DNA of 64,000 nucleotides from a virus, in the IMG/VR virus record IMGVR_UViG_3300028133_000002, positions 6,836 through 70,835 of that record, one strand, 5' to 3'. How positions within the stretch are numbered: position 1 is the first letter of the stretch; every line of letters begins with the position of its first letter. The notes under the pieces were generated by a model. It made no database searches and was not told the origin of the DNA. It was given only the letters and a program-made list of their open reading frames with translations. Of the stretch, positions 8,301 to 63,564 are shown in pieces. The translations under genes were made by a program, and so were the position numbers.

Positions 8301-9466
8301 CTGCTCTCGAAAGTGTAACAGAAACTGATACAAAGGGTTCTGGAATTGGCACTGCAACAGTGACTTCTGGAAATACAGCAGTAACAATTTCTGCATCGGG
8401 TGATGATATTACTTGGATGGCTGAAGCTGGTGATTATTTACTTAATTCTTCTGGAACCTTTGTGGGAGAAATTCATGATGTAAATAGTGCTTCATCAATT
8501 ACTCTAAGATCTGGAGCTGCTGTACCTATGTCGGCAGAAGCATTCCAAATTCAAAACAATAATCATGTTAAGTTTTATGATCTTGGTACAAAAGGTATTA
8601 TTGAAACAAGCTTTGATACTGCCGATAACTTACTTGCAAACGCTTCTATTGGTAAATATATTACAGTTAACTCAATCTCTGATATTGTAAATGGCACTCA
8701 CCAAATTGAAGATATTGTAATTGAGGCAGCAGATCCGGATCGTCCTGGAAATACTGATGGCGATAGAATTACTATTACACTAGCTGCTCCATTTAATATT
8801 GATGGTGTGATGAGACTTAATATTGTTGCTGATACTTTTGATTTTTATGGGTCTGGAAGTATTACAACAAACGGTTCGACAACTGTGATAGGCTCTGGTG
8901 GTACCAACTTTGTAGAAGAAGTAAATATTGGTGATAAACTAATTAGTTTAGATGGAACTACATTGGGCGAGGTTGCTTCTATTACTTCTGTTACTGAGCT
9001 TGAACTGACTAGCTCTTCAGCTGCTACTATTAGTGGTGAAGATTATACAGTTCGTAAAGAACTTGGACCATCACCAACTTATTCGATCCAACAATTAGAT
9101 AAGTTTGTTGAAGACTATGCTCCTGCTGGATCATATAACTATGCAAACTATATTACTCGTCCATTATACTTAAATGAACCTGCTGACTCTATTAAAATGA
9201 TATTTGATGCTGAAGTATTACCTTCAACAGATATTGATGTATATTACAGAACAGCAGTTGGCACAGAAGATATTCACTCTAAGATTTTTACCAATACGAA
9301 CTTTATAAATAATACTATAAACCCAGAAGGTGAATTTACTCAAAGAGAAATTGACATTAGTGATATTGACCCTTATACAAGAGTTGTTATTAAGATTGTA
9401 ATGAAATCGTCTAATCCAGTAAATGTGCCAAAAATTAAAAACTTAAGGCTTATTGCATACTCATAA
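2339..9466 (+). CDS. Large virion structural protein (DUF4815/VrlC-like)
   Basis: N-terminal PYYDDY...FYRILFRPG.AVQARELTQIQTILQ.Q, internal DRFKNGFITDQF and DPVAQTF, C-terminal PKIKNLRLIA. Located in the baseplate region. Confidence 0.75.
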   Translation: MTINFNTDPYYDDYDETKDFYRILFRPGVAVQARELTQIQTILQKQVSRVGDHLFKNGSQIIPGSVNVDNDVHFAKLNTTFNSVEVTTYLSSFQNMIITGSTSGVTAVVLDSSECNCVIDGTTPTLYFKYESTAADGETKRFIPGENLVATVADNTVANNYRLTTPLAAEMSVTISAPVGNTTYTNNANTDVIGRGYVVEVKEGIYYIDGFFVRNEELHLYTGRFSNTPTARVGFKVVEETITPEADTTLLDPAQGTYNYTAPGGHRYKISLELTELPEESSGTDSIKFVELVRLKNGQVQSKINRTSYAELEKAMARRTYDANGHFEVNKFKLNKREHLDDTTNNGVYLDADGGDDSKFVLSIDPGRAYVYGYEVEAIATTFVDFDKARGDDHTVELQQQPIGTPVGNYLLVDKVQAYAPDFEAFEEIDLVRKYTSVDETNHFAPGSLSSFDEKVGTARVKSFELHSGSYSSNPIFKLGLFDIKMKPGYSFTDDVNGYREAGQTIGNICGGGNIVVDPDVGYVTGTATNSATTITGVGTLFEQEFAAGDVVVINGGVVGQVHTVDSNTQITVTGTTDVSTSYSGRVQKLKAILQDSEYPNLIYPVGYQYIDSLYNTDGTREGTLTVRRILSDTTDGAGTWSFTLTTQGETYLSDQDLENYTLFDSSGNVVNIDSGDISFDSDSNRKTVFISGLSNNVAYTLATTIRQSGTIGAEKTKTLQEDFVETITGKKTVTAQRITLSKGDVFGIKDIRVTPGNYLAYDANNSISILNSFTLDDGQRPTHYQAAELVLKATKKVPSGALQVTYDYFTHSASGNYFTVDSYTRPDNPAVGIDYGLIGTTNFDNGETVNLADVIDFRPIISGDNTTSPELPAVGSDLTTDLAYYMARIDKLLLTSKGEWKVIKGVPSIDPQEPADSDDGMIVATIFIPPYTKQVGDVKLRQRDNRRYTFKDLGNMDRRMASMEEYVALDQLEKLTADLQITDATTGIDRFKNGFITDQFTGHSLGDVKRDDYRFAVDATNKLGRPMHFTSSLDIIEDVSDQAERAATSYQKTGDVITLPYTEESLIFNPYGSRTIDVNPYKIGAFKGEITLNPEGDNWKETDRRPDLTVTDDNGYDAIKFIADEIGITGTQWNEWETNWTGSSTSTRTWQTGDPNRRRQTVTGYEETVTTITGLDSRTGVQTNISSTVNSQNYGDRVVDLSYIPYMRSRPVVFTAKNLKPDTKFFPFFDDKSVTSYVTPAQVFKVSLSSAASYIDFDPVNLQQGVITDQFERTENGKVEAAYAVGDVVKNSTHTATNIDSITNLISAGSSFNIDVANATGIAPGHHVMFYNLGANRAIDASPSNNNIAIPESTITDYSRSTSSELNLKKFKVTGVSGTTITLENIDGSNIAAFSAYDLTAYTGDAGKLLRLTASGVVAFQGVLDDETAPTTTNRFIHVVNVKNGFAVGETITGVITTAGGQINSVDIEEINGSTSLTSAPTVYSSADDLRTDTWGSAIGVFNIPNTDALAFRTGERRFKLIDNRTNNDADFDSKGSAVYYSTGISLSKEATVVNSRDVRFVEDRLYEELPVRRTSTSQRVLYSYYTGHDPVAQTFTVNSDGGASVTSVDIFFSEAGNRPITVELRTTNQGVPSTKIIPFSAITKTPQEVSVSADGSVATTFTFDSPVYLMEGETYALIVKTDEPGCRFFISEVGQTDVVTGNVITSQPLTGSLYLSQNSLEFEINPLYDMKFNLRKALYSTNDINVDLKVATPESITLQSNPFTIATGTNKVRVAARNHGFRANDVVVISNVAEAVYGADGTNGIPVDLLNGQHTVASTGLDKDSFIIEVETEDSNSESLITGTLDDLVRGEYGGEGILCTRQLNMDMMYLKSGAVSVKGANIDWYVNHESFGNNVYRPIVGDSNYMFDERQTIKSYENQTIIQASPLVKRSSVLVRATLSTDNVNVSPQLDLQKGAAYIVSNLINDSSENLVNVPELDATDLYTPALESVTETDTKGSGIGTATVTSGNTAVTISASGDDITWMAEAGDYLLNSSGTFVGEIHDVNSASSITLRSGAAVPMSAEAFQIQNNNHVKFYDLGTKGIIETSFDTADNLLANASIGKYITVNSISDIVNGTHQIEDIVIEAADPDRPGNTDGDRITITLAAPFNIDGVMRLNIVADTFDFYGSGSITTNGSTTVIGSGGTNFVEEVNIGDKLISLDGTTLGEVASITSVTELELTSSSAATISGEDYTVRKELGPSPTYSIQQLDKFVEDYAPAGSYNYANYITRPLYLNEPADSIKMIFDAEVLPSTDIDVYYRTAVGTEDIHSKIFTNTNFINNTINPEGEFTQREIDISDIDPYTRVVIKIVMKSSNPVNVPKIKNLRLIAYS

Positions 9467-32319: not shown

Positions 32320-33624
32320 ATGTTTAATGCAGAAAATGCATCTCAAAAATGGCAGCCAATCCTCGAGAGCGCTGCGATTCCAGAGATCAAAGACAACTAC
32401 CGTAAGTCCGTAACTGCGGTACTTCTCGAAAACCAAGAAAAAGCAATGCACGAAGAGCGCGCTGCTTTCGGCATGGTAAATGAAACAGCTGCTAACGCAA
32501 CTGGCGCTGGTATCGATACTTTCGATCCAGTACTCATTTCACTTGTACGTCGTTCTATGCCAAACCTTATGGCTTATGACGTTGCTGGTGTTCAGCCAAT
32601 GTCTGGTCCAACAGGCTTGATCTTCGCAATGAAGAGCCGTTATAGCACAAAAGCTGGTGCAGAAGCTCTCTTCGGTGAAGCAGATACAGCTCACTCCGGT
32701 GCAGGTTCACATGCAGGTGATTCCGATTCATTGGGTTCATATGGTACAGATACTACTCCAGCTGATGACATCGAAGATTCATTTGCAACTGGTACTGGTA
32801 TGGCTACTGCAGCAGTTGAAGCACTTGGTAACACAGGTGGCAACTTCGGCGAAATGGCTTTCTCAATCGAGAAAACATCAGTAACTGCAAAATCACGTGC
32901 GCTCAAAGCAGAGTACACAATGGAACTTGCACAAGACTTGAAAGCAATTCACGGTCTTGACGCAGAATCAGAATTGGCAAATATCTTGTCAGCTGAGATC
33001 CTTGCAGAAATCAACCGCGAAGTAATTCGTACAATCAACGTAAAAGCTAAGCTTGGCGCACAAACATCTAACACTGCTGTAAACGGCGTATTTGATGTTG
33101 ACGGTGACTCAGACGGTCGTTGGTCAGTAGAGAAGTTCAAAGGTTTGATCATGCAGATCGAGCGTGAAGCTAACACAATCGCGAAAGAAACACGTCGCGG
33201 TAAAGGTAACTTCATTATCTGTTCCTCAGACGTTGCATCTGCTCTTGCAGCAGCTGGCATGTTGGACTACACACCAGCACTTGCAGCTAACTTGAACGTA
33301 GATGACACAGGCAACACATTTGCTGGTGTTCTTAACGGTCGCACAAAAGTATACATCGATCCATATGCAACACAGGATTATGTAAACGTAGGTTACCGTG
33401 GTACAAACCCATACGATGCAGGTCTTTTCTATGCACCATATGTTCCATTAACAATGGTTCGTGCGGTAGGTGAAGAAGACTTCCAGCCACGTATTGGTTT
33501 CAAAACACGTTACGGCATGGTTGCTAACCCATTCGCGGGTGGCGCAGCTTCTGCTGAAACTGGTACAGATCGTGCAAACCAGTACTACCGTATCTTTGCT
33601 GTTACAAACATCTTAGGCACATAA
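32320..33624 (+). CDS. gp23: Major capsid protein
   Basis: KWQPIL, GVQPMSGPTGLIFAMKSRY, KSRALKAEYTMELAQDLKAIHGLDAE, FQPRIGFKTRYG. Confidence 0.98.
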   Translation: MFNAENASQKWQPILESAAIPEIKDNYRKSVTAVLLENQEKAMHEERAAFGMVNETAANATGAGIDTFDPVLISLVRRSMPNLMAYDVAGVQPMSGPTGLIFAMKSRYSTKAGAEALFGEADTAHSGAGSHAGDSDSLGSYGTDTTPADDIEDSFATGTGMATAAVEALGNTGGNFGEMAFSIEKTSVTAKSRALKAEYTMELAQDLKAIHGLDAESELANILSAEILAEINREVIRTINVKAKLGAQTSNTAVNGVFDVDGDSDGRWSVEKFKGLIMQIEREANTIAKETRRGKGNFIICSSDVASALAAAGMLDYTPALAANLNVDDTGNTFAGVLNGRTKVYIDPYATQDYVNVGYRGTNPYDAGLFYAPYVPLTMVRAVGEEDFQPRIGFKTRYGMVANPFAGGAASAETGTDRANQYYRIFAVTNILGT

Positions 33625-52352: not shown

Positions 52353-54878
52353 TTGGAATTCTACACTAACGTAACTCGTTACGGCAACAGTCTTCTTTAT
52401 CGTGGCTACAAAAACGGCCAACGTTTTGAAGACCGTATTAAATTCTCACCAACACTCTATCAAGCAGATCCAAATGGAACCGCGTATACCATGAACGGTG
52501 TGCGCGTTTCTCCACGCTTGTTTGATACAATGCGCGAAGTAAAAGATTATCAGCAAGCATGGAAAGATGTTGGTGGTGCTGATAAAACTCTATACGGTCA
52601 AACTAACTTTGTCTCTTCTTTTATTCAAGAAAAGTTTCCAGACAATATTGAATTTGATCGTGATATTATTAATGTGTCAACAATCGATATTGAAGTTGCC
52701 TCTGATGATGGATTCCCAACTCCAGAAGAAGCAGCTTATCCAGTAATCTCAATTACTATTAAAAACAATATTGATAACATTTATTATGTCTGGGGTCTAT
52801 ATGATTATAATCCTTCTGCTTGTACACTTGGTAGTGTCACTGCTAATGATATTGTTTATGTTCAATGTCAAGACGAGCGAGAATTACTCTTACGCTTTCT
52901 TGCTCATTGGAATTCAGATCGTCATTGCCCTGATGTTATTACTGGTTGGAATACCCGCTTCTTCGATATTCCTTACCTCGTAAATCGTATTACTAAATTC
53001 ATTGGCGAAGACTTTGCTAAAAAGATGTCACCTTGGGGTGTAGTCAATCCTCGATCTGTAACAACTATGGGTCGTGAACAACAATACTATAATCTTGAAG
53101 GTATTGCATCTCTTGATTATCTTGAACTTTTCAAAAAGTTTGGTTACTCATATGGTGCTCAAGAATCCTATAAACTAGATCATATTGGTCACGTTGTTCT
53201 TGGTGAACGTAAACTTTCTTACGAAGAATTCTCTTCACTTCATTCTCTTTACAAACACGACTTTCAAAAGTTTATTGACTATAATATCAAAGATGTTGAA
53301 CTAGTTGATCGTCTTGAAGATAAGATGGGTTTGATTACCCTTGCACTTACTATGGCTTATCGTGGTGGTGTAAACTATACTGACACTCTCGGCACAACCG
53401 CGATCTGGGATTCAATTATCTTTCGAGATCTATCTCAACAAGGTATTGTTATTCCTGCTGCTGAAGACAAATTCAAATCCGATTATCCAGGTGGCTACGT
53501 AAAACCGCCTCAAATTGGTTTACACGAATGGGTTGTTTCTTTTGACTTGGCTTCTCTTTATCCAAACATTATTGTTCAATGGAATATGTCGCCTGAAACT
53601 ATTGTCGATGGTAAGCGTGAACAAATGGATCCAGACATGGCCTTGGCTGGCAATATGCCGCAACTAAAAGGTGACTATGCGCTTGCAGCTAATGGTGTAT
53701 ATTTTACCAAAGAAAAGCAGGGCGTATTACCAAAAATCATTGTTGACTATTACAATGAACGTAAAGCTGTTAAGAAACGCATGTTGGCTTCTCAACAAGA
53801 ACTTGAAACAATTGATAAATCAAATGTCGTTGAAAAATATCGAGTTGAGCGTGATATTGCCCGTTATGAAAACCAGCAAATGGCGATTAAAATTCTGTTG
53901 AATTCGCTTTATGGCGCATTGGGCAACAAATACTTTCGTTACTTTGATCTTCGTGTTGCTGAAGGTATTACCTTAACTGGTCAAACTGTTATTCGTTGGG
54001 CTGAACGTTCTGTAAACGAATTTATGAATAAAATTGTTGGTACTGATAACAAAGACTATGTAATCGCAATTGATACTGATTCTGTCTACGTTAATTTTGG
54101 CCCTTTAGTTGATAAGTATGTAAAAGATAACCAAGTAGATAATATTGCTCAAATATGCAAAGATCAATTTGAGCCAATGCTTGAAAAATCATATCAAAAT
54201 TTATATGATATGTTTAATTGCTATATGCCTCGTATGGAAATGGACCGTGAAGCAATTGCTGATCGTGGCATCTGGACTGCTAAAAAACGTTATATCTTGA
54301 ATGTTCATGACAATGAAGGTGTTCGTTATGCTGAACCAAAACTTAAGATCATGGGTATTGAAGCTATTAAGTCTTCAACTCCATCAGCGTGTCGTGATGC
54401 ACTGAAAGCTTTGTTCAAAGTAATTGTAACCGGTGATGAAGGTGCTACACAAAAAGCAATTCAACAATTCAAAGATTATTTTGTTACATTGCCACCAGAA
54501 AATGTATCCTTTCCACGTGGTGTAAATGACACCATCAAATGGCGGGATCGTAAACTGATCTATAAAAAGGGTACTCCAATCCATGTACGTGGGGCACTCC
54601 TATATAATCATAATGTCAAAGACAAAAGCCTTGATAAGAAATATACACTTATTCAAAACGGTGAAAAGATCAAGTTTTGTTATTTGAAAATGCCAAATCC
54701 AATCAGAGAAAATGTTATTTCATTCCCTGATTATCTTCCACAAGAATTACAGCTTCATAAATACATTGACTATGATCTGCAATTCAAAAAAACCTTTTTG
54801 GATCCAATTGAACCAATCCTAGATGCTATTGGCTGGTCTGTTGAAGAAAAGGTATCAATTGAAGACTTCTTTGCATAA
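52353..54878 (+). CDS. gp43: Family B DNA polymerase
   Basis: DIEV, GWN..FFDIPY, YN..DV exonuclease motifs; SFDLASLYP, KILLNSLYGALGN, DTDS, KKRY. TTG start after GGAGG. Confidence 0.98.
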   Translation: MEFYTNVTRYGNSLLYRGYKNGQRFEDRIKFSPTLYQADPNGTAYTMNGVRVSPRLFDTMREVKDYQQAWKDVGGADKTLYGQTNFVSSFIQEKFPDNIEFDRDIINVSTIDIEVASDDGFPTPEEAAYPVISITIKNNIDNIYYVWGLYDYNPSACTLGSVTANDIVYVQCQDERELLLRFLAHWNSDRHCPDVITGWNTRFFDIPYLVNRITKFIGEDFAKKMSPWGVVNPRSVTTMGREQQYYNLEGIASLDYLELFKKFGYSYGAQESYKLDHIGHVVLGERKLSYEEFSSLHSLYKHDFQKFIDYNIKDVELVDRLEDKMGLITLALTMAYRGGVNYTDTLGTTAIWDSIIFRDLSQQGIVIPAAEDKFKSDYPGGYVKPPQIGLHEWVVSFDLASLYPNIIVQWNMSPETIVDGKREQMDPDMALAGNMPQLKGDYALAANGVYFTKEKQGVLPKIIVDYYNERKAVKKRMLASQQELETIDKSNVVEKYRVERDIARYENQQMAIKILLNSLYGALGNKYFRYFDLRVAEGITLTGQTVIRWAERSVNEFMNKIVGTDNKDYVIAIDTDSVYVNFGPLVDKYVKDNQVDNIAQICKDQFEPMLEKSYQNLYDMFNCYMPRMEMDREAIADRGIWTAKKRYILNVHDNEGVRYAEPKLKIMGIEAIKSSTPSACRDALKALFKVIVTGDEGATQKAIQQFKDYFVTLPPENVSFPRGVNDTIKWRDRKLIYKKGTPIHVRGALLYNHNVKDKSLDKKYTLIQNGEKIKFCYLKMPNPIRENVISFPDYLPQELQLHKYIDYDLQFKKTFLDPIEPILDAIGWSVEEKVSIEDFFA

Positions 54879-55060: not shown

Positions 55061-55089
55061 TGTACATTCTTTTTTGGTTGTGATATAAT
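55061..55089 (+). promoter_or_regulatory. T4-early-like promoter
   Basis: TGTACA-17-TATAAT. Confidence 0.8.
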
Positions 55090-55511: not shown

Positions 55512-56204
55512 ATGAAGTGGATATTTGATGTTGATGGTACTCTTACACCAAGTAGGAGTAAAATGGATTCTGAATTTAAAGAATACTTTTTAAAGTTTGC
55601 AAAAGCTAATCGAGTATATCTTGCGACGGGATCTGATTACCCAAAGACCGTAGAACAAATTGGTTCTAAAATATGTGAAACAGTAAAAGCTTGCTATAAT
55701 TGCTCCGGTAATTCTATTTGGGTTGCTGGTAAAGAAGTATATAGTGCAGACTGGGAACTACCAGAACTTGCAAGGTACTTCTTAGAAAGCTGTTTGTATG
55801 AAAGTAAGTTTAGTATACGCACTGGAACTCATATTGAAGAACGTCCTGGTATGGTAAACTATAGTACTATTGGCCGGAATTGTACTCAAGAAGAAAGAAG
55901 CCAATACATTTTATTTGATAAAGAATTTAATGAACGTCACACAATCGCAGATTCATTTAATACAATGTTTCCTGACCTAGAAGCAAAGGTTGGTGGAGAT
56001 ACTGGAATTGATATTTTTCCAAAGGGATTAGATAAATCTCAAATTGCACAACACATAAAGGGTTCAGCAATTTTCTTTGGCGATAAAATGATGCCAGGCG
56101 GAAACGACAGACCATTAGCAGAACAAATTGTAAAAAGGTTTGGCGGTCGAGCTATTGAAGTAAAAGGCTGGAAAGATACTTGGAAAAGGATGAAAGAAAT
56201 ATGA
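55512..56204 (+). CDS. HAD-IIB phosphomannomutase-like enzyme
   Basis: FDVDGTLTPSR, TGSD, HIEERPGMVNYS.IGRN, GG..GIDIFPKG.DK, FFGDK..PGGND, matching eukaryotic-type PMM motifs. Confidence 0.85.
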   Translation: MKWIFDVDGTLTPSRSKMDSEFKEYFLKFAKANRVYLATGSDYPKTVEQIGSKICETVKACYNCSGNSIWVAGKEVYSADWELPELARYFLESCLYESKFSIRTGTHIEERPGMVNYSTIGRNCTQEERSQYILFDKEFNERHTIADSFNTMFPDLEAKVGGDTGIDIFPKGLDKSQIAQHIKGSAIFFGDKMMPGGNDRPLAEQIVKRFGGRAIEVKGWKDTWKRMKEI

Positions 56205-56374
56205 TTCACTTTAGTTACTATAATTCAGAAATAGAAGAAACTGTAGAAATGCAAACCGATATGGATGATATTTCTACTCATGAACTTTGCAATATGCTTG
56301 AACGATTTATGCTTGCAATAGGTTACGTTTTACCTGAAAATTGCAGTGTACAAATTGCAGAAAATGATGTATAA
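56201..56374 (+). CDS. Small hypothetical protein
   Basis: ATGA overlap with the upstream gene; ERFMLAIGY motif. Confidence 0.6.
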   Translation: MIHFSYYNSEIEETVEMQTDMDDISTHELCNMLERFMLAIGYVLPENCSVQIAENDV

Positions 56375-56375
56375 T
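56347..56375 (+). promoter_or_regulatory. T4-early-like promoter overlapping the upstream stop codon
   Basis: TGTACA-17-TATAAT. Confidence 0.75.
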
Positions 56376-56403
56376 AAACTATATTATGAAAACGGAGAAA
56401 CAC

Positions 56404-56607
56404 ATGGCAAAATACGAGCCAAAAACTTATCCTAGTGATACTATCAAAATGAAAAACCATTGGGCCGTTGGCACAGTATGGGATGTTATTGGTAGCCGCG
56501 GAAATAACTATAACGTAGAATTTTTAGATAAAGGTTTTAGCTGTGATTGCCCCGCCTTTAAAAAATGCAAACATATTAAAAAAATAGAGGAAGCTTTCAA
56601 TGTCTGA
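56404..56607 (+). CDS. SWIM zinc-finger protein
   Basis: GSRGNNY.V.....FSCDCPAF..CKHI; ATG at 56404 after GGAG. Confidence 0.8.
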   Translation: MAKYEPKTYPSDTIKMKNHWAVGTVWDVIGSRGNNYNVEFLDKGFSCDCPAFKKCKHIKKIEEAFNV

Positions 56608-57010
56608 TTGGGCAAATGATATTACTATGATGCACTACAAGTTTGGTGTAAAAGAATGGTTTGAAAAGAATAAGCACGACAAAGAATTGATGAAAAATTA
56701 TCTAAACTTTCGTCTTGCGATGTGTAAAGAAGAACTTGACGAAACAATGGATGCTATTGAAGCAAAAGATCCAGAAGAAATTGTTGATGGTCTTATTGAT
56801 CTTTGTGTTTTTGCAATTGGCACTCTCGATGTATTCGGTGTTGACGCAAACGAAGCATGGGATCGAGTGTATGAAGCAAATATGGCTAAAACACCAGGCG
56901 TAAAAGAAGGTCGTCCAAATCCATTTGGTCTTCCAGATTTGATTAAGCCTGAAGGCTGGACTGCTCCAACACATGAGGCTAATCATGGGAATTTCCCTGA
57001 CGCTGTTTAA
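56600..57010 (+). CDS. MazG-like / all-alpha NTP pyrophosphohydrolase (candidate dCTPase)
   Basis: KEELDE, EEIVDGLIDL, V.EANMAK, DLIKPEGW.AP motifs. Confidence 0.8.
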   Translation: MSDWANDITMMHYKFGVKEWFEKNKHDKELMKNYLNFRLAMCKEELDETMDAIEAKDPEEIVDGLIDLCVFAIGTLDVFGVDANEAWDRVYEANMAKTPGVKEGRPNPFGLPDLIKPEGWTAPTHEANHGNFPDAV

Positions 57011-57914
57011 CAGCATTTTTGATAATAAAACTGATAAAAGAATGGATCTCTCGAATTGGCAACAGTTCGAGAGTCTGCTGTATGATCTTTCCACTGTTGA
57101 ACGAAAAGACAAGAAAGATGCGCAACTCATCTCACCAGCAACTTATCAACCTGATACTACAAGGGCAAATGCTAATGTAGTTAATTGGGCCGGTTGGGCT
57201 GCAGTTGATGTCGACGATCACGTATTTGAAGGTGACTTAGAAAATGAACTATATAATCGTTATGGTGATTGGTATTACATTTGCTACTCAACTGCTAGCA
57301 GCACTATCGATCATCCGAAGTTTCGACTCGTATTCCCACTTAAAGCTTCGATTGGAGTCGATCAAATTAAGAAATTTTGGTTTGCGCTCAACACTGAACT
57401 CGGATCAATCGGAGATCGGCAGACTAAAGATTTATCTCGCATGTATTACATTCCTGCGAGCTATGCTGGTGCTAATAATTTTATTTTTACTAATTCTTCA
57501 GGTTCTTACATTGATCCTTATGCTTTAATTGATAAGCATCCAATCGTTGAAAAGAAAGGTTCAAGCTTTTTTGAACGTTTGCCTGAATCAATGCAAAAGA
57601 CTATTATCCAGCATCGCAAAGATCAAATGCAAAATAACTCTATTAAATGGGTATCTTATCATGATTGCCCATTTATGAATAAGAACTTAGTTGTAGAATA
57701 TAAAGCACTTACTGGAACTGGTTGGTATCATATGATGTATAGAATTATGGTCTCAATTGCTGGTAATGCAATCAAACGTGAATATCCAATCACAGTTCAA
57801 GAAGTAGTTCAGCTATGTAAAGAACTTGACATGGAAACTGGTAATTGGTATGACAACCGTCCACTTGATAAAGAAGCTGAAAGAGCTATCGAATTTGTTT
57901 ATGGAAATATGTAA
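56985..57914 (+). CDS. Archaeo-eukaryotic primase-like protein with helical C-terminal domain
   Basis: DVDD, YSTASS....PKFRLVFPL and D.SRMYYIP correspond to AEP motifs I-III. Confidence 0.65.
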   Translation: MGISLTLFNSIFDNKTDKRMDLSNWQQFESLLYDLSTVERKDKKDAQLISPATYQPDTTRANANVVNWAGWAAVDVDDHVFEGDLENELYNRYGDWYYICYSTASSTIDHPKFRLVFPLKASIGVDQIKKFWFALNTELGSIGDRQTKDLSRMYYIPASYAGANNFIFTNSSGSYIDPYALIDKHPIVEKKGSSFFERLPESMQKTIIQHRKDQMQNNSIKWVSYHDCPFMNKNLVVEYKALTGTGWYHMMYRIMVSIAGNAIKREYPITVQEVVQLCKELDMETGNWYDNRPLDKEAERAIEFVYGNM

Positions 57915-58351
57915 TGAAATTTAATGCTAAAACTGACTTAGATCCTGCAAGGCTATATAATAGAGCTGAAACAGAAGCTAAACTAATCCACAGTAAACCA
58001 TCAACCGCTCGTGGTAGATCTTTAGAAAATATTATAGAAACTGTTATGTATGGCCATGCTGCAGAATTATATCTAATAGACCATGAAAGTTTTAGTGATG
58101 ATCCACGTGAATATAAAGATGTAATTGATACAGAAGGTAATCAAGTAGAAGTAAAAGTTACTGAAGGCGAATATTATGTTCCGTATGTTTTACAAAGATG
58201 TAATGACGCCGCAATAGAAACTTGGCGAAAATATCCAGAAGTTCTTTATGTCTTTATTGGTAATAAAGAAACATGTGATTATAAACTACACGGAATTTAT
58301 TTGTGGAATGGTAAACAATTTTGTTTACAAACCGAAGAAGATAATGTATAA
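57914..58351 (+). CDS. Putative PD-(D/E)XK nuclease-fold protein
   Basis: G.AAE helix followed by DVID....VEVK. Confidence 0.45.
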   Translation: MKFNAKTDLDPARLYNRAETEAKLIHSKPSTARGRSLENIIETVMYGHAAELYLIDHESFSDDPREYKDVIDTEGNQVEVKVTEGEYYVPYVLQRCNDAAIETWRKYPEVLYVFIGNKETCDYKLHGIYLWNGKQFCLQTEEDNV

Positions 58352-58352
58352 T
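58324..58352 (+). promoter_or_regulatory. T4-early-like promoter overlapping the upstream stop codon
   Basis: GTTTACA-17-TATAAT. Confidence 0.8.
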
Positions 58353-58378
58353 ATACCTATTATATTGATGGAGTACCT

Positions 58379-58699
58379 ATGAAATACGATTCAAATAAAC
58401 CACCTTTGCATCTCATTCCACCAGAAATTCTAGTTGAAATTTCTGAAATCTTTGCGTTTGGTGCTGAAAAGTATGGTGAAAACAATTGGCGCGATGATGG
58501 TGGTTCTACAGGTTATGGTAGAACCTATTCGTCTATTCAACGGCATCTAAATACATTTTGGCAAGGTGAAGATATTGATCCTGAATCTGGTAAAAGTCAT
58601 TTAGTTCATGCTCTTACTCAGTTGATTATTCTCCGCATTCACCAACTTGAGCATCCTGAAATGGATGATCGTTACAATATTACGAGACCAAAGAAATGA
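58379..58699 (+). CDS. dATP/dGTP diphosphohydrolase-domain protein (DUF5664-like)
   Basis: KYD..KP...LIPP, FGAEKYG.NNWR, RHL..F..GED.DPESG.SHL.HA. Confidence 0.85.
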   Translation: MKYDSNKPPLHLIPPEILVEISEIFAFGAEKYGENNWRDDGGSTGYGRTYSSIQRHLNTFWQGEDIDPESGKSHLVHALTQLIILRIHQLEHPEMDDRYNITRPKK

Positions 58700-59109
58700 T
58701 TATAGGATTTACATGTTCTACATTTGATCTGCTTCATGCGGGTCATATTGCTATGTTAAGAGAAGCAAAAGCTCAATGTGATTATCTTATTTGTGGTTTA
58801 CAAGTTGATCCTAGTCGAGATCGTAAAGAAAAGAATCCACCAGTACAAAGTTTAGTTGAAAGGCATGTTCAACTTTCTGCTTTAAATTACGTTGATGAGA
58901 TCATTCCGTATTGTACAGAAGCTGATTTACTTGATATAATAAACATGTATCCAATCAATGTTCGTATTCTAGGCGATGAATACAAAGACAAAGATTTTAC
59001 TGGAAAAGATGAATGCCGCAAGCGTGGTATTCAACTTTATTTTAATAAACGAGATCATAGGTTCTCATCCTCTGATCTAAGAAAGAGAGTATGTGATGCT
59101 GCTAAATAG
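58696..59109 (+). CDS. Cytidylyltransferase-family nucleotidyltransferase (TagD/RfaE-like)
   Basis: STFDLLHAGH (HxGH), LICGLQ.DP, YVDEI.PY, R.H.FSSS.LR. Confidence 0.9.
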   Translation: MIIGFTCSTFDLLHAGHIAMLREAKAQCDYLICGLQVDPSRDRKEKNPPVQSLVERHVQLSALNYVDEIIPYCTEADLLDIINMYPINVRILGDEYKDKDFTGKDECRKRGIQLYFNKRDHRFSSSDLRKRVCDAAK

Positions 59110-59794
59110 TGTAAAAGATATTCGTGAATTCTTTATTGGCGAACTAAACGATGAAGCATTTACTATTGACAAAACAGGACAACGCACCATTGAAATGCTT
59201 GGCGCTAATTTTTTAGCAACTGAGCCAGCGATCTTTGGTGAACCAGTTAAGTCTTATATTAATGCTGAGCTTGCTTGGTATGAAAGCGGTTCAACAAACA
59301 TTTACGATATTCATGGTGCTGATAAAGAACCACCTCAAGCATGGCGATATGCTGCTGATCAACATGGCAATATTAATTCTAACTATGGCCATTTAGTCTT
59401 TGCAGACAAGTATCACAATCAATTTTATAATGCTTTTGATGAACTATGGCATAATCCTGATAGTCGCCGCGCTCAAATGGTTTACAATCGTCCATCTATC
59501 TGGGTTGAATTTGATGAAGGTGGTAAATCAGATTTCATCTGTACTAATGCGCAAACCTTCTATATCCGCGATGGCATTTTGCATATGGTGTCGCAGATGC
59601 GCTCAAATGATGTTGTGTTTGGATATAAAAACGATTACGCTTGGGCTCAATACTTAATGGATAAGTTTGTTGCTCAATGGAATGAACAATGCAAACTTCC
59701 TGGCAATAAACACTTTACTATTGAAAAGGGTATGCTTACATGGCAGGTAATGAATTTGCACGTATACGAACGTCACTTTAATTTGGTGAAGTAA
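59093..59794 (+). CDS. gp42: dCMP hydroxymethylase (thymidylate synthase fold, T4 gp42-type)
   Basis: DKTG..TIE, EP.IFG, INSNYG, NPDSRR, SDFICTN (catalytic Cys), MRSNDVVFGYKNDYAW with Asp at the base-specificity position, LHVYERHF. Collinear with T4 gp42 as recalled. Confidence 0.88.
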   Translation: MMLLNSVKDIREFFIGELNDEAFTIDKTGQRTIEMLGANFLATEPAIFGEPVKSYINAELAWYESGSTNIYDIHGADKEPPQAWRYAADQHGNINSNYGHLVFADKYHNQFYNAFDELWHNPDSRRAQMVYNRPSIWVEFDEGGKSDFICTNAQTFYIRDGILHMVSQMRSNDVVFGYKNDYAWAQYLMDKFVAQWNEQCKLPGNKHFTIEKGMLTWQVMNLHVYERHFNLVK

Positions 59795-60030
59795 TGAATA
59801 AATTAATATTAATTAGCGATATTATTGAGCAAAAAGTGCGTAAAGAAAAAGAGCTTCAATACTATCAAGAAGAACTTGAAAAGCTTAAGCAAAAAATGTG
59901 GTTCATTCAAAAAGATATCGATGTTACAAATATAATCATTAATATGATTGAAACAGAAAAAGTAGTAGATTTTAAAGATCAAATGGAAACCAAAATGTTA
60001 GGAGAAGACGATGCCAACTATGAGGGGTGA
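59794..60030 (+). CDS. Hypothetical coiled-coil protein
   Basis: Translationally coupled ORF (TAATG overlap). Confidence 0.6.
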   Translation: MNKLILISDIIEQKVRKEKELQYYQEELEKLKQKMWFIQKDIDVTNIIINMIETEKVVDFKDQMETKMLGEDDANYEG

Positions 60031-60460
60031 ATGGAACAAACGCTATCTTGATCTTGCCCGTACTGTAAGTTCATGGTCAAAAGATCCATCAAAGAAAATC
60101 GGTGCTATTGCTGTTGGTACTAAAGGTCAGGTTCTTGCTCAAGGATATAATGGGTTTCCACGCGGTATTAGTCATTCTAGTAAAAGACTAAAAGATCGCG
60201 ATTTGAAGTATAAGTACGTAGTTCATGCTGAAATGAATTTGATATATAATGCATCGTACAATGGTGTATCCCTTGATGATTCTACAGTCTATGTTACTGG
60301 TCTACCGGTTTGTTCAGAATGTGCTAAAGGTCTTATTCAAGTTGGTGTTCGTCAAGTGATTATGCCAGTACAAAAAGATACACCAGAAAAATGGAAAGAT
60401 TCATTTGAATTTACTAAAGAATTATTTGAGGAGGCTGGGGTTGCCTGGCAGTTTATATGA
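60011..60460 (+). CDS. cd: dCMP deaminase
   Basis: SKDPS.KIGA, GYNGFPRG, HAE, PVCSECAK zinc motifs. Confidence 0.93.
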   Translation: MPTMRGEWNKRYLDLARTVSSWSKDPSKKIGAIAVGTKGQVLAQGYNGFPRGISHSSKRLKDRDLKYKYVVHAEMNLIYNASYNGVSLDDSTVYVTGLPVCSECAKGLIQVGVRQVIMPVQKDTPEKWKDSFEFTKELFEEAGVAWQFI

Positions 60461-61272
60461 TTGAGCATATTATTATTCCCACGCTAGGTCGTATGGATAA
60501 ACAAGTCACATACAATAATCTACCTAAGAAATATCAAGATAAAGTAACCTTTGTAGTTCAAGCTCATGAGTTTGAAGAAATGAGAGAAAGATATGGTTCA
60601 GCTGTTATTGGTCTCCCTGATAATATATCTAGAATCGCGCCTACGAGAGAGTGGATCTTTAACAACTACCGAGAGTGTCGTCATATGGTTTTTGATGATG
60701 ACCTCGATTTTGTTGTAAAAGAGCCAAATCCCGGTGAAGGTACTAAATGGCTATCACGTCGTTTTACAGAACAAGATTTTGATGACACATTTGGTCTAAT
60801 GAATCAATGGATGGATGAAGGTATTGTCTATGGTGGTTTACTTCCAGCTTGGGTAATTCCAGATGTACGTCAATGGCCAGTTCGTGAGTGTCAACGTATT
60901 ATGACAAACGTATTTTATGATGGGCCAAATGTTCCAGATGGAATTGAATGGAATCGAGTAGCAGCTGCTGAAGACTTTGATGTAAATCTTCAATTGCTTA
61001 CAAAAGGTTTTAAAAATCGTATTAGTGCTAAATATATGGTAACATGTTCTGAAACAAATGCCGAAGGTGGTTGTTCTACATGGCGCACTCTTGAAGTACA
61101 TAATGATGCACAAAGAAAACTAGCAGAACTTTGGCCAGACTTTGTAAAGGTTCGCGAAAAAGAAGTTCCTAATGGACCTTGGAAAGGCCAAATAAAATTA
61201 GCAACTACTATTCAACATAAGAAAGCTTATGAGTCCAGCCAACATCAATCGTTGGAGGATTTTTTCGGATGA
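60457..61272 (+). CDS. GT-A fold glycosyltransferase, candidate DNA (hmC) glycosyltransferase
   Basis: IIIPTLGR, I.PTREWI, VFDDD (DxD), EDFD..LQLL..G, GGCS resemble phage TET/JBP-associated and hmC glycosyltransferases; C-terminal SLEDFFG. Confidence 0.75.
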   Translation: MIEHIIIPTLGRMDKQVTYNNLPKKYQDKVTFVVQAHEFEEMRERYGSAVIGLPDNISRIAPTREWIFNNYRECRHMVFDDDLDFVVKEPNPGEGTKWLSRRFTEQDFDDTFGLMNQWMDEGIVYGGLLPAWVIPDVRQWPVRECQRIMTNVFYDGPNVPDGIEWNRVAAAEDFDVNLQLLTKGFKNRISAKYMVTCSETNAEGGCSTWRTLEVHNDAQRKLAELWPDFVKVREKEVPNGPWKGQIKLATTIQHKKAYESSQHQSLEDFFG

Positions 61273-62462
61273 AATATGCAAGTATAGTACCACTCATTGG
61301 TGGTGAAACAATTGCAATGGAAAATGCATTTGGTAAAAGGCCTGAATATATTGTAAGCTATGAACCATTTGCTAATAATGACCAGCATATTGTTGAACAT
61401 TATAATCATGAAGTTCCATACAATGTAATTACTGAAAATAGTTCTACAAAGTTTGAACAGGTGGATGTTGTAAATACTGTTTGCCCGTGTGCGGGTTTAA
61501 GTAGTCTTTCACCTTCATCTGCTAGTGATAACGTTGCTAATGATTGGATGTTTATTACTTCTGAATATGTACTAGGTACTATGGCACCTAAAGTATTCTG
61601 GGGAGAGAATGCACCACGACTTGCATCTAAAATGGGTGAACCTGTAGTCAAACGCCTTCGTGAAATTGGTAAGAAACATGGTTATACATTCTCAATCTAT
61701 AAGACTAAATCTATTCTTCATGGGTTGAGCCAAGTTCGAGATCGTACGTTTTATTTCTTTTGGAAAGATGATCGTGTTCCTGTCTTTGATTACTTCCACC
61801 GTCCTCATGAAAAAATTGAGGATATGATTCGATCAGTGCCAAATAATCCAGATGATCCTATGAGTCAAATGCTGACTAATACTAAAAAGCCTACTGATAA
61901 TCCGTTTTATAAGTATGTGCTTGAAGTTATTGAAGGTGGTATTACTCACCAAGAATTTGCTGCTAAGATCGAAAAGACTACTAATCCACTTGATTACATT
62001 GAAGCCAATGGCATTAAATATAATGAAGTAGGAGAATGGATGGAAGCAAATGGTTTTGAGCGTGAAGCTGCAAAATGCAATCGTATGTATGAAAAGCTAA
62101 AAGCTGGTGGTAACATCATGCGAAAAAATACTGAAATTCCAAAAGATTACTTTGGAGCTTTTGTAGGTCATATGCCAACTTCAACTGCTCATCCAGATGA
62201 AGATAGATATTTAACTGTCCGTGAAGCTATGGAAGTAATGAAGCTGCCTCGTGACTTTGTTCTACAAGGTGGGCTCAAAAATCTAAATCATATTTGTCAA
62301 AATGTTCCGGTGACAACAGCAACAGATATGGCTGAACAAATTAAAAAATACCTTAGTAACAAGTTAGATACTGTTGATGCTGATTTTATGATTCAATGTA
62401 ATAAAACAAAATCACTTGATTACAAACAAATTGGTGTACAGCTAGACGAATTTATGGTATAA
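61269..62462 (+). CDS. Divergent C5-cytosine DNA methyltransferase-like protein
   Basis: CPCAGLS (motif IV PC), WGENAP (VI), QVRDRTF (VIII), RYLTVREA (IX), QNVP (X). Motif I reads VPLIGG instead of FxGxGG. Confidence 0.75.
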   Translation: MKYASIVPLIGGETIAMENAFGKRPEYIVSYEPFANNDQHIVEHYNHEVPYNVITENSSTKFEQVDVVNTVCPCAGLSSLSPSSASDNVANDWMFITSEYVLGTMAPKVFWGENAPRLASKMGEPVVKRLREIGKKHGYTFSIYKTKSILHGLSQVRDRTFYFFWKDDRVPVFDYFHRPHEKIEDMIRSVPNNPDDPMSQMLTNTKKPTDNPFYKYVLEVIEGGITHQEFAAKIEKTTNPLDYIEANGIKYNEVGEWMEANGFEREAAKCNRMYEKLKAGGNIMRKNTEIPKDYFGAFVGHMPTSTAHPDEDRYLTVREAMEVMKLPRDFVLQGGLKNLNHICQNVPVTTATDMAEQIKKYLSNKLDTVDADFMIQCNKTKSLDYKQIGVQLDEFMV

Positions 62463-62463: not shown

Positions 62464-62493
62464 ATACTTAATATAAATGAAAAGGTGACTTAT

Positions 62494-63564
62494 ATGTCTG
62501 TAATGGATAAACTCAAAAAGAATTCTAAGTTGAAAAATACTGAAGTTCTTTCAAAATCAAAGTTCTTTACCGAAAAAGATATGGTGCCAACTGAAGTACC
62601 AATGGTAAACGTTGCTTTGTCTGGTTCTGTTGATGGCGGTCTTACTCCAGGTATGACTGTTCTTGCAGGTCCTTCAAAACACTTTAAAACTTCTTTTGCT
62701 CTTTTGATGGCAGCTGCTTATATGAATAAGTACGAAGATGCTGTTATGCTATTTTACGATTCTGAATTTGGTTCTCCTCAATCTTATTTTGAATCATTTG
62801 GTGTAGATCCATCTCGAGTACTTCATACTCCAATTACTAATGTTGAAGAACTTAAGTTTGATTTGATTGGCCAACTTGAAAATATTGAACGTGAAGATAA
62901 AGTAATTGTTGTAATCGATTCAATTGGTAACCTTGCATCTAAGAAAGAACTTGAAGATGCTATTAATGAAAAGTCAGTTGCTGATATGTCCCGTGCAAAG
63001 GCCTTGAAAGGTCTTTTCCGTATGACAACTCCATATTTGACTATGCGAGATATTCCTCTTTTGGCTATTAACCATACATATCAAGAAATTGGTTTGTTTC
63101 CAAAAGCTGTTGTTTCTGGTGGTACAGGTATCTACTATTCAGCAGATAATATCTGGATTATTGGCCGTCGTCAAAACAAAAAGGGTACAGAAATTACTGG
63201 TTACGACTTTGTGATTAATGTTGATAAATCTCGTTATGTAAAAGAAAAATCGAAGATTCCAATCTCGGTATCTTGGGATGGTGGTGTAGAACAATGGTCA
63301 GGTCTTCTTGAAGTTGCAATGGTTGGTAACTTTGTACGTAAACCAAGTAATGGTTGGTATGAAGCAATGGATCCTGCGTCAGGTGAAGTTCTAAGCCCAA
63401 GTAAAGTTCGTGAAGCTGAAACTCTTACTGAAGAATTCTGGAAGCCAGTATTTGAAAAAACAAACTTCAAAGAGTTCTTAAAAGAACATTATACAATTGG
63501 TTATAAATCTACTATTGATGAAGCCGCATTAGAGGGTGTACTTGAGGGAGGAAATGATGTATAA
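62494..63564 (+). CDS. uvsX: RecA-like recombinase UvsX
   Basis: AGPSKHFKT, FYDSEFG, IDSIGNLASKKE, ADMSRAK.LK.LFR, VSGGTG..YSAD, KSRYVKEK. Confidence 0.96.
   Translation: MSVMDKLKKNSKLKNTEVLSKSKFFTEKDMVPTEVPMVNVALSGSVDGGLTPGMTVLAGPSKHFKTSFALLMAAAYMNKYEDAVMLFYDSEFGSPQSYFESFGVDPSRVLHTPITNVEELKFDLIGQLENIEREDKVIVVIDSIGNLASKKELEDAINEKSVADMSRAKALKGLFRMTTPYLTMRDIPLLAINHTYQEIGLFPKAVVSGGTGIYYSADNIWIIGRRQNKKGTEITGYDFVINVDKSRYVKEKSKIPISVSWDGGVEQWSGLLEVAMVGNFVRKPSNGWYEAMDPASGEVLSPSKVREAETLTEEFWKPVFEKTNFKEFLKEHYTIGYKSTIDEAALEGVLEGGNDV

Follow-up and report, generated by a model that had tools for sequence, protein, structure and literature searches.

A predicted T-even-style 5-hydroxymethylcytosine pathway with exchangeable decoration genes between gp43 and uvsX in an uncultured marine T4-like phage lineage

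The DNA analysed here, referred to as the window, spans 64,000 nucleotides (bases 6836-70835) of IMGVR_UViG_3300028133_000002, a linear virus record of 70.8 kb in IMG/VR with an estimated completeness of 39%, and this work concerns the island of genes that lies in it between gp43 and uvsX. We consider it likely that the island encodes a hydroxymethylcytosine pathway of the T-even style, in which cytosine would be replaced before replication and the new base decorated after it, in an uncultured marine lineage of T4-like myoviruses related to the Kyanoviridae. A system of this kind, with pre-replicative 5-hydroxymethylcytosine (5hmC) and post-replicative glycosylation, is already known and the lineage is new; the gene set appears real and coherent, and its chemistry is predicted. 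A first-pass annotation had listed ten genes in this slot, and profile searches and folds recovered all ten between the two borders, which are the family-B DNA polymerase gp43 on the left (52353-54878; Pfam DNA_pol_B, E = 3.6e-34) and the UvsX recombinase on the right (62485-63564; PF21134 and PF00154). Both borders and every credible open reading frame (ORF) of the island are on the plus strand, many ORFs overlap by 1-17 bases, and stop/start overlaps are common.

The identity of the base is suggested by a core gene of the island, that of the gp42-type enzyme (59093-59794). Its product aligned full-length with the T4 dCMP hydroxymethylase (PDB 1b49/1b5e; E = 5.9e-57), contains the motif MRSNDVVFGYKNDYAW and shares 47.1% identity with its counterparts in T-even-type Klebsiella phages. 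It has the thymidylate synthase fold (PF00303, 47 bits against a cut-off of 24.3 bits), and the catalytic Cys of its SDFICTN segment, which aligns with DFMCTN of T4, was invariant in 10 sequences. Enzymes that act on dCMP are recognised by an Asp at the position of ThyA N177 and an acidic residue at that of L143 (PMC13326640), and the window enzyme has Asp at both (in KNDYAW and as the D of SDFICTN). The first-pass annotation had proposed that this phage makes a 5-substituted dC; given the residues at these positions and a 47% identity with gp42 of T-even phages, this is very probably 5-hydroxymethyl-dC, and we strongly infer from the sequence that the enzyme converts dCMP to 5-hydroxymethyl-dCMP (5hm-dCMP).

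A likeness to gp42 calls for care, since enzymes of RB69-like phages that were first annotated as dCMP hydroxymethylases, the "gp42-like" proteins of RB69 and DLP3, were shown in 2026 to be flavin-dependent 5-hydroxy-dCMP synthases, and the residues at N177 and L143 are common to both types (PMC13326640). The window protein could be such a synthase, or else an ordinary or a dUMP-directed enzyme, in which case the base would not be 5hmC, but the residue at a third position makes this highly improbable. Asn at ThyA D169 is the published diagnostic of the 5-hydroxy-dCMP synthases (PMC13326640); RB69 gp48 has MRSQN at this site, whereas the window enzyme has RSND, and all eight aligned lineage homologues, the window's included, combine Asp at D169 and N177 (MRSND...KND) with Asp at L143. 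Identity to RB69 gp48 is 24%, against 47% to the T-even-type enzymes, and matches to ThyA chains of E. coli length (264 aa) reached only E = 7e-5 or weaker, against 5.9e-57 for T4 gp42, which argues against an ordinary thymidylate synthase. Because Asp is found at D169, N177 and L143, the enzyme carries the sequence marks of a hydroxymethylase and lacks that of a hydroxylase, and an identity as an RB69-type synthase was rejected.

The gp42-type gene belongs to a gene set that is conserved across genomes. Relatives were collected from IMG/VR with the glycosyltransferase (GT) of the island as query, which gave 37 loci at 57-97% identity, and with an alignment of its C5-methylase-like protein, which matched at least 600 stretches; 582 of these stood up to confirmation, and the 80 best were kept. 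Gene presence was read from tblastn tables and gene order from gene maps; there were 90 loci with distinct methylase DNA, 37 of them with at least 5 kb upstream. All of these 37 encode gp42, 36 the dCMP deaminase, 33 the AEP-like protein and 31 the MazG-like protein, and 16 encode the GT-A glycosyltransferase seen in the window. The shared frame reads gp43, MazG, AEP, small variable genes, gp42, dCMP deaminase, variable cassette, C5-methylase-like gene and uvsX, with uvsX after the methylase in 73 of 76 loci. Co-occurrence across genomes had been named beforehand as a test of the proposed system, and it holds for the core genes (gp42 in 37/37, deaminase in 36/37) and fails for a phosphomannomutase and a nucleotidyltransferase discussed below (4/37 and 10/37). 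When the island was compared by megablast with 50,697 phage records, a collection from which near-identical entries may be missing, no match was obtained. The isolate nearest by gp43 is phage C48C1 (Kyanoviridae; 54.9% identity), which has no gp42; its gp43-uvsX slot (L001, 14495-18241) holds a clamp-tailed 294-aa DNA methyltransferase, an AEP protein, a sugar epimerase and a UDP-glucose dehydrogenase. A 146.6-kb relative with terminal repeats (G001), estimated to be complete, was used for several of the comparisons that follow.

The decoration step is represented in this phage by the GT encoded at 60457-61272, which has a DDD motif and fills the variable cassette. It matched PF20691 over positions 2-205 of 205 with 75.1 bits, against a cut-off of 27.5 bits (E = 9.9e-21), and phrog_842, "beta-glucosyl-HMC-alpha-glucosyltransferase", with E = 2.2e-45; sequence search found no solved relative. 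By these profiles the protein is a member of the TAGT (beta-glucosyl-HMC-alpha-glucosyltransferase) GT-A family. The expectation that the modified C would be altered further on DNA agrees with this assignment, as the enzyme very probably glycosylates 5hmC in DNA, the sugar transfer being predicted from its place next to gp42 and the dCMP deaminase and from its C-terminal tail. Of the 31 distinct GT-A loci, 28 of 30 have the methylase downstream and 19 of 20 have gp42 upstream; the loci that break the pattern, L035 and L038(-40), come from other phage types, and L038-40 still have the order MazG-gp42-GT. Small proteins with a weak match to the uracil-DNA-glycosylase (UDG) superfamily (E = 2.7e-5 to 4.9e-3) were often observed just upstream of the GT in relatives (for example L019:9183-9563, L025:9624-10004, L034:9646-10035 and L122:12307-12825); their cluster comprises 12 ORFs, none with a clamp tail.

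The tail in question resembles the peptide by which the polymerase would hold the sliding clamp. A strict pattern, [LIM][DEQ][DEQSAT]F[FLMIY] followed by at most three further residues at the C-terminus, was found in 3 of the 202 ORFs of at least 50 aa in the window, namely gp43 (SIEDFFA), the GT (SLEDFFG) and the methylase (QLDEFMV), and a looser pattern added a gp55-like sigma factor and a probably spurious minus-strand ORF of 85 aa. The tails of the GT and the methylase are conserved in all lineage copies with a readable C-terminus, and the tail is absent from gp42, the dCMP deaminase, the AEP protein and uvsX, as well as from the GT homologues of the other phage types (L035, L038-40). In the relatives, 45 of 289 variable ORFs carry it, all of them in T4-alpha-glucosyltransferase-like (AGT-like) GT-B enzymes (15/19), kinases resembling 5-hydroxymethyl-dU (5-hmdU) DNA kinase (HMUDK; 15/16) and a family of 343-aa proteins (15/16), and it occurs in no member of the epimerase, UDP-glucose dehydrogenase, inositol-phosphate-synthase-like, HAD, DUF1599-like, UDG-like and FkbM clusters. 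Six of the 435 ORFs of the complete relative G001 match the pattern, gp43, a GT-B and the methylase among them. The C48C1 methyltransferase ends in TLDAFFG and RB69 gp43 in KKASLFDMFDF, the latter reportedly being the peptide that was crystallised on the RB69 clamp. Because of this distribution among the relatives' proteins, the tail appears to mark enzymes that act on DNA at the replisome, and the rule offers a simple sequence marker for separating DNA-acting from small-molecule enzymes in such islands. In this regard, T4 alpha-GT is reported to bind the clamp gp45 (PMC13216743).

Comparison of the stretch between the dCMP deaminase and the methylase in 41 mapped loci revealed four types: 5 loci with the GT-A, 19 with a GT-B, 16 with a kinase set and one other. 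The GT-B resembles the T4 alpha-glucosyltransferase (PF11440, E = 1.6e-35) and is often accompanied by an NAD epimerase or a UDP-glucose dehydrogenase. The kinase set consists of a myo-inositol-1-phosphate-synthase-like protein, a small HAD protein, a 5-hmdU-DNA-kinase-like protein (PF18723, E = 7.6e-13) and the 343-aa protein. Because the slot swaps these four cassette types, the window can be regarded as one variant of a diversifying decoration island. The kinase set suggests that 5hmC in DNA undergoes a phosphate-activated chemistry, and it may exceed the cassette of the window in novelty; it was observed in L059, L061-L064, L066-L069, L080, L085, L093, L099, L101, L111 and L114, where the kinase-like and 343-aa proteins are the clamp-tailed members. 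The same variable slot was also seen to hold a homologue of the Thoeris inhibitor Tad3 (E = 6.1e-40), a YspA/SLOG protein and a class-V aminotransferase (L028:9464-9976, L025:9113-9454 and L034:8451-9644). In G001, an FAD-dependent oxidoreductase (DAO, E = 3.5e-54) lies directly after gp43 (region coordinates, with a class II aldolase included, L122:6533-7729 and L122:556-1182).

Two accessory genes of the window could be involved in making a sugar donor. The first (55512-56204) encodes a eukaryotic-type phosphomannomutase (PMM) of the HAD-IIB group (PF03332, E = 3.3e-29, 102.7 bits against a cut-off of 22.4), which matched solved phosphomannomutases in the PDB with E = 2.2e-33 and keeps the HAD nucleophile motif DVDGT (FDVDGTLTP); it is a candidate mutase from sugar 6-phosphate to sugar 1-phosphate. 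The second (58696-59109) encodes a nucleotidyltransferase resembling TagD, ethanolamine-phosphate cytidylyltransferase (ECT) and domain II of HldE, and a candidate maker of a nucleoside diphosphate (NDP) sugar or a CDP-alcohol. Its match to the cytidylyltransferase-like family PF01467 (E = 1.4e-12) places it at the superfamily level only, and it remained below the cut-offs of both TIGR02199 (rfaE_dom_II, HldE; E = 1.8e-19, 70 bits against 181.5) and the TagD equivalog TIGR01518 (E = 1e-18, 67.6 bits against 165.4); its best solved relatives are ethanolamine-phosphate (ECT, 8.9e-23) and glycerol-3-phosphate (TagD, 1.3e-13) cytidylyltransferases.

That the phage builds its own donor, as the first-pass annotation had proposed, is plausible from these two genes, and we put the chance at somewhat short of even; as a general requirement of the system the claim does not stand. 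Several observations weigh against it. PMM is present in only 4, and the nucleotidyltransferase in only 10, of the 37 methylase loci with sufficient upstream sequence, and both genes are missing from the island in 8 of the 11 mapped lineage relatives that carry this GT-A. Nucleotidyltransferase homologues at 49-72% identity are common in other phages, including Vibrio, Acinetobacter, Caulobacter and Roseobacter phages and cyanophages, and in the two contexts that were inspected, those of Vibrio phage Va1 and of Acinetobacter phage Ab1-TPeters, no thymidylate synthase (TS) homologue is annotated nearby; in G001 the gene lies outside the island, upstream of gp43 and beside a class II aldolase. 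PMM homologues (45-53% identity) occur in the cyanophages S-SSM7 and P-TIM68, and the context in S-SSM7, the only one inspected, is unrelated. Together with solved relatives that make CDP-alcohols, these data suggest that the pair could equally consist of unrelated auxiliary metabolic genes in a plastic region, serving host envelope sugars or a metabolism of the CDP-glycerol/CDP-ethanolamine type, while the GT-A uses a host UDP-sugar. We see this as a serious possibility, if one that falls short of probable, since other observations speak against it: PMM was always accompanied by the nucleotidyltransferase (in 4 of 4 unique loci and in the window), the two are adjacent in L060, whose GT is a GT-B, and in the window the nucleotidyltransferase follows the MazZ-like gene and its 3' end overlaps the start of gp42. 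In addition, a cluster of a HAD-kinase (HAD-APH), a cytidylyltransferase and a GT has been described that puts heptose on 5hmC (bioRxiv 10.1101/2023.12.21.572611). An "NAD synthetase" beside the PMM gene of S-SSM7 was considered as a counterpart of the window nucleotidyltransferase and rejected, since the two are not homologous and the S-SSM7 copies are distant and elsewhere in the genome.

The last gene before uvsX (61269-62462), a core gene, encodes the C5-cytosine-methyltransferase-like protein (PF00145, E = 5.1e-19). The motifs IV (Pro-Cys), VI (Glu-Asn), VIII (QxRxR) and X of DNA cytosine-C5 methyltransferases are all present, and C74 (PC), E113-N114 (ENAP), Q155/R157/R159 (QxRxR) and Q344-N345-V346-P347 (QNVP) were invariant in 11 sequences. 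Motif I is PL(I/V)GG (PLIGG in the window, with P8, L9, G11 and G12 invariant) in place of the usual FxGxG. The family is large (2451 protein clusters at E ≤ 1e-10, with at least 582 IMG/VR stretches encoding a relative); in the phage collection it occurs in only six records, from the S-TIM5 group and from phage XG4, and in the relatives it is retained regardless of the type of decoration cassette. In cyanophage S-TIM5 (L003) the methylase homologue lies 2.4 kb from a TS homologue (coordinates 4766-5602 and 7986-9203); with Asp at the position of ThyA N177 and Cys at that of L143, this "thymidylate synthase", gp076, may act on dCMP. In Pseudoalteromonas phage XG4 the cluster, which is RB69-like, runs from a TS homologue through a HAD protein, an NTP-transferase-kinase (APH) fusion and two GT-B to the methylase. 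As side observations, this unannotated isolate (vB_Psh_XG4, PP712099.1; L004, 100-6580) has a methylase homologue 32% identical to that of the window, and its TS homologue retains Asp at ThyA D169.

The methylase is a difficulty for the hydroxymethylcytosine pathway proposed here, as complete replacement of cytosine would leave a C5-methylase without its normal substrate. Its clamp tail suggests that it works on nascent phage DNA. Since all the catalytic and cofactor-side motifs are invariant, the simplest reading would be plain methylation, dependent on S-adenosylmethionine, of cytosines that were not replaced. A more unusual possibility is that the enzyme acts on the C5-substituted base, with Cys-C6 activation of 5hmC, or carries out another reaction on modified DNA, which would give a further, so far undescribed derivative of cytosine. 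This would suit a family that closes three clusters with TS homologues having Asp at N177 (this lineage, 37/37; XG4; and S-TIM5, where the methylase is near the TS), that stays constant whatever the cassette, that carries the tail expected for work on nascent DNA and that has PLIGG instead of FxGxG in motif I. Nonetheless we find it decidedly unlikely, because PC, ENAP, QxRxR and QNVP are kept exactly as in ordinary C5-methylases and because we know of no natural precedent for a C5-methylase that acts on a C5-substituted base. A broader idea, speculative and with only a modest chance of being right, is that in three unrelated phage groups (this marine lineage, XG4 and the S-TIM5-type cyanophages) the methylase accompanies pre-replicative cytosine replacement as a constant partner tethered to the clamp, and that its reaction differs from ordinary site-specific methylation, either as a near-sequence-blind sweep or by a reaction on the substituted base. 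If so, a sweep would leave no cytosine without a C5 group and would yield a two-layer code of glycosyl-5hmC and 5-methylcytosine, and the gp43-uvsX island would be a plug-in platform in which decorating enzymes reach nascent DNA by gaining the clamp-binding tail of the polymerase. Such a platform would include the HMUDK-like DNA kinase cassette of 16 relatives and hence phosphate-activated chemistry at 5hmC.

Three further proteins of the island would act on the nucleotide pools. The MazG-like protein (56600-57010), a core gene product, is an all-alpha NTP pyrophosphohydrolase of the MazG/PRA-PH family (PF01503, E = 3.9e-11; phrog_671) and a candidate dCTP/dUTP pyrophosphatase that would be the functional analogue of T4 gp56. 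The MazZ/DUF5664-type protein (58379-58699), an NTP diphosphohydrolase N-domain (PF18909 dGTP_diPhyd_N, E = 2.3e-28) with no solved relative by sequence search, sits at a variable position where many relatives have DUF1599-like proteins instead; the cluster comprises 27 ORFs. The dCMP deaminase (60011-60460) is a core gene product with clear family matches (PF00383, E = 1.4e-17; phrog_174, E = 2.7e-40). Besides the paradox of the methylase and the dispensable donor genes, evidence from this part of the pathway weighs against our interpretation. The solved structure nearest to the MazG-like protein is DR2231, a weak match (E = 1.2e-4) to an enzyme described as dUTP-preferring, and dCTPase activity of the MazG-like protein is for this reason only assumed. 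A search for T4 gp56 found none in five records including the complete G001, the window's own record being 39% complete and single-sequence searches being weak. Furthermore, searches for T4 gp1, Thymidylate_kin and dNK found none in the same five records, and a scan of G001 for ORFs with a Walker A motif left one unassigned 214-aa candidate at G001 32963-33607 besides PhoH and larger proteins. The kinase for 5hm-dCMP is thus still missing from the set.

Two of the ten genes are assigned roles outside the modification chemistry. The first-pass annotation had counted the AEP-like protein (56973-57914) as a member of the modification system, an assignment that we revise. This 313-aa protein, a core gene product of the lineage with an AEP fold and a helical C-terminal domain, matched phrog_9765 "DNA primase" (primase N-domain) with E = 3.7e-54 and had no Pfam match. 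Its AlphaFold model (pLDDT 87.4) was matched by Foldseek to the AEP domain of the cyanophage S-2L PrimPol (6zp9, E = 8.3e-6, probability 1.00) and to RepB' (E = 2.8e-4), and D79 and D81 of the DxD motif, as found in the AEP superfamily, were invariant in 28 sequences. It is 48% identical to the C48C1 "DNA primase", which lies in a phage region without gp42. T4 gp61 was found in none of the five records and Toprim_2 matched only G002, so that neither was detected in the complete G001. The protein is probably the replicative primase of the phage and not a modification enzyme, with which the absence of a DnaG/gp61-type primase in G001 fits. The 145-aa protein encoded directly after it (57914-58351), an accessory gene product, had been called PD-(D/E)XK-like, and this call is moderately supported. 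Its model has a high pLDDT (92.3), its leading fold matches are PD-(D/E)XK nucleases, and E51, D69 and K81 were invariant in 16 homologues; the matches themselves are weak, with a best Foldseek E of 9e-3 and VIA Z values of 5.0-6.7, below the confidence zone of the tool, for PA endonuclease, Dom3Z/Rai1, NhoI, Eco15I and Hjc, among other folds, and no Pfam match was found. We regard the protein as a candidate accessory nuclease of this small PD-(D/E)XK type. A lead pointing to the T4 Endo IV family (Atlas score 0.92) was neither confirmed nor refuted by the fold searches.

The remaining island ORFs are two small ones. The 73-aa protein (56386-56607) has a CxC...CxH pattern and no Pfam or PHROG match; a homologue was seen in L011 and weaker labelled matches in L105 and L107. 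The 78-aa protein (59794-60030) is conserved in close relatives only and has no significant family match in Pfam or PHROGs. The motif T[GT]TACA-N17-TATAAT, of early promoter type, occurs 10 times in the window (36619-62463), against 0.11 expected, 9 of the 10 being on the plus strand; five of them, all on the plus strand, are inside the island (starts at 55061, 56347, 58324, 58912 and 62435, the first spanning 55061-55089). The late-promoter motif TATAAATA was not found in the window after 49530. This promoter pattern fits an early expression of the island alongside the replication genes.

Taken together, the genes can be arranged in a sequence of steps. MazG-like and/or MazZ-like pyrophosphatases would shift the pool by turning dCTP and/or dUTP into monophosphates. 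The gp42-type enzyme, for which the sequence evidence is strong, would hydroxymethylate dCMP, and the dCMP deaminase would supply dUMP for dTMP, as in T4. Some kinase would bring 5hm-dCMP to the triphosphate, and gp43 would incorporate the product. The TAGT-family GT-A, held at the clamp by its polymerase-like C-terminal peptide, would then glycosylate 5hmC in nascent DNA. With weak to moderate support, the PMM-type mutase and the TagD/HldE-like nucleotidyltransferase may supply an NDP-hexose or NDP-heptose for this phage and for a few of its close relatives. Lastly, and speculatively, the clamp-tailed C5-methylase-like enzyme could work on this nascent DNA as well, its simplest role being the methylation of any cytosine left unreplaced. 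On this model, hmC-type DNA would seem to be widespread among the uncultured marine myoviruses of an abundant lineage, and the swap slot, with its GT-A, its AGT-like GT-B with epimerase or dehydrogenase and its kinase set, would constitute a naturally occurring library of enzymes that modify DNA, and of donors. This could be relevant to the evasion of restriction and CRISPR, to the way in which such DNA behaves when metagenomes are sequenced and to enzymes for labelling 5hmC.

When the island is compared with known systems, the first-pass view that this gene combination is not recognised from characterised pathways proves outdated, as a module for donor synthesis is present in the gp43-uvsX slot of RB69-type phages (PMC6024577; PMC13326640) and a heptosyl-5hmC set has been published. 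Our literature search found no description of this lineage or of its exact gene set, although such contigs may already be listed by Pyle 2023 and Lee 2026. The closest parallel is the T-even hmC pathway (T4 gp56, gp42, gp1, cd and alpha/beta-GT; T2/T6 TAGT), which lies in the same slot and likewise has a gp42-type hydroxymethylase with the same signature residues, a dCMP deaminase and, in T2/T6, a GT of the TAGT family PF20691. Association of a GT with the clamp is also shared, being known for T4 alpha-GT (PMC13216743) and predicted here from the tail. Unlike T4, the window has MazG/MazZ-type enzymes in the place of gp56, and no gp1-type kinase was found; unlike in T2/T6, where the GT-A is described as adding the second sugar (PMC13216743), it is the sole GT here. 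A constant C5-methylase-like partner, an optional PMM and nucleotidyltransferase and an AEP primase inside the island further set it apart from the T-even phages. The arabinosyl-5-hydroxycytosine clusters of RB69, DLP3 and HY126 also combine, in the gp43-uvsX slot, a TS homologue, DNA GTs and a phage NDP-sugar supply with a HAD phosphatase and a nucleotidyltransferase (PMC6024577; PMC13326640). In contrast to the window, their TS homologue has Asn instead of Asp at ThyA D169 and makes 5-hydroxy-dCMP, their GTs are GT-B instead of GT-A, for nucleotidyl transfer they have a fusion of a GT-A-like NTP_transferase with a kinase instead of a TagD/HldE-type enzyme, and they have an arabinose-5-phosphate isomerase where the window has a PMM-type mutase. 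Clusters of a C5-methyltransferase, a TET/5mYOX enzyme and a GT (Burke 2021, PMC8256090; Pyle 2023, bioRxiv 10.1101/2023.12.21.572611) likewise place a C5-methylase beside a TAGT-type GT-A. Unlike these, the window's own contig has no TET/JBP protein (PF12851), its methylase family is limited to the S-TIM5 group and XG4 in the phage collection, and its methylase would not be needed for the 5hmC precursor because gp42 would make it before replication. The Pyle 2023 survey also reports GT-A matches beside thymidylate-synthase homologues with an accompanying dCMP deaminase (bioRxiv 10.1101/2023.12.21.572611). What appears to be new in the lineage described here is a hydroxymethylation pathway with no recognisable hm-dCMP kinase, a GT-A as sole GT, clamp tails on the DNA-acting enzymes, an optional pair of PMM and TagD/HldE-like nucleotidyltransferase and a constant C5-methylase-like partner.

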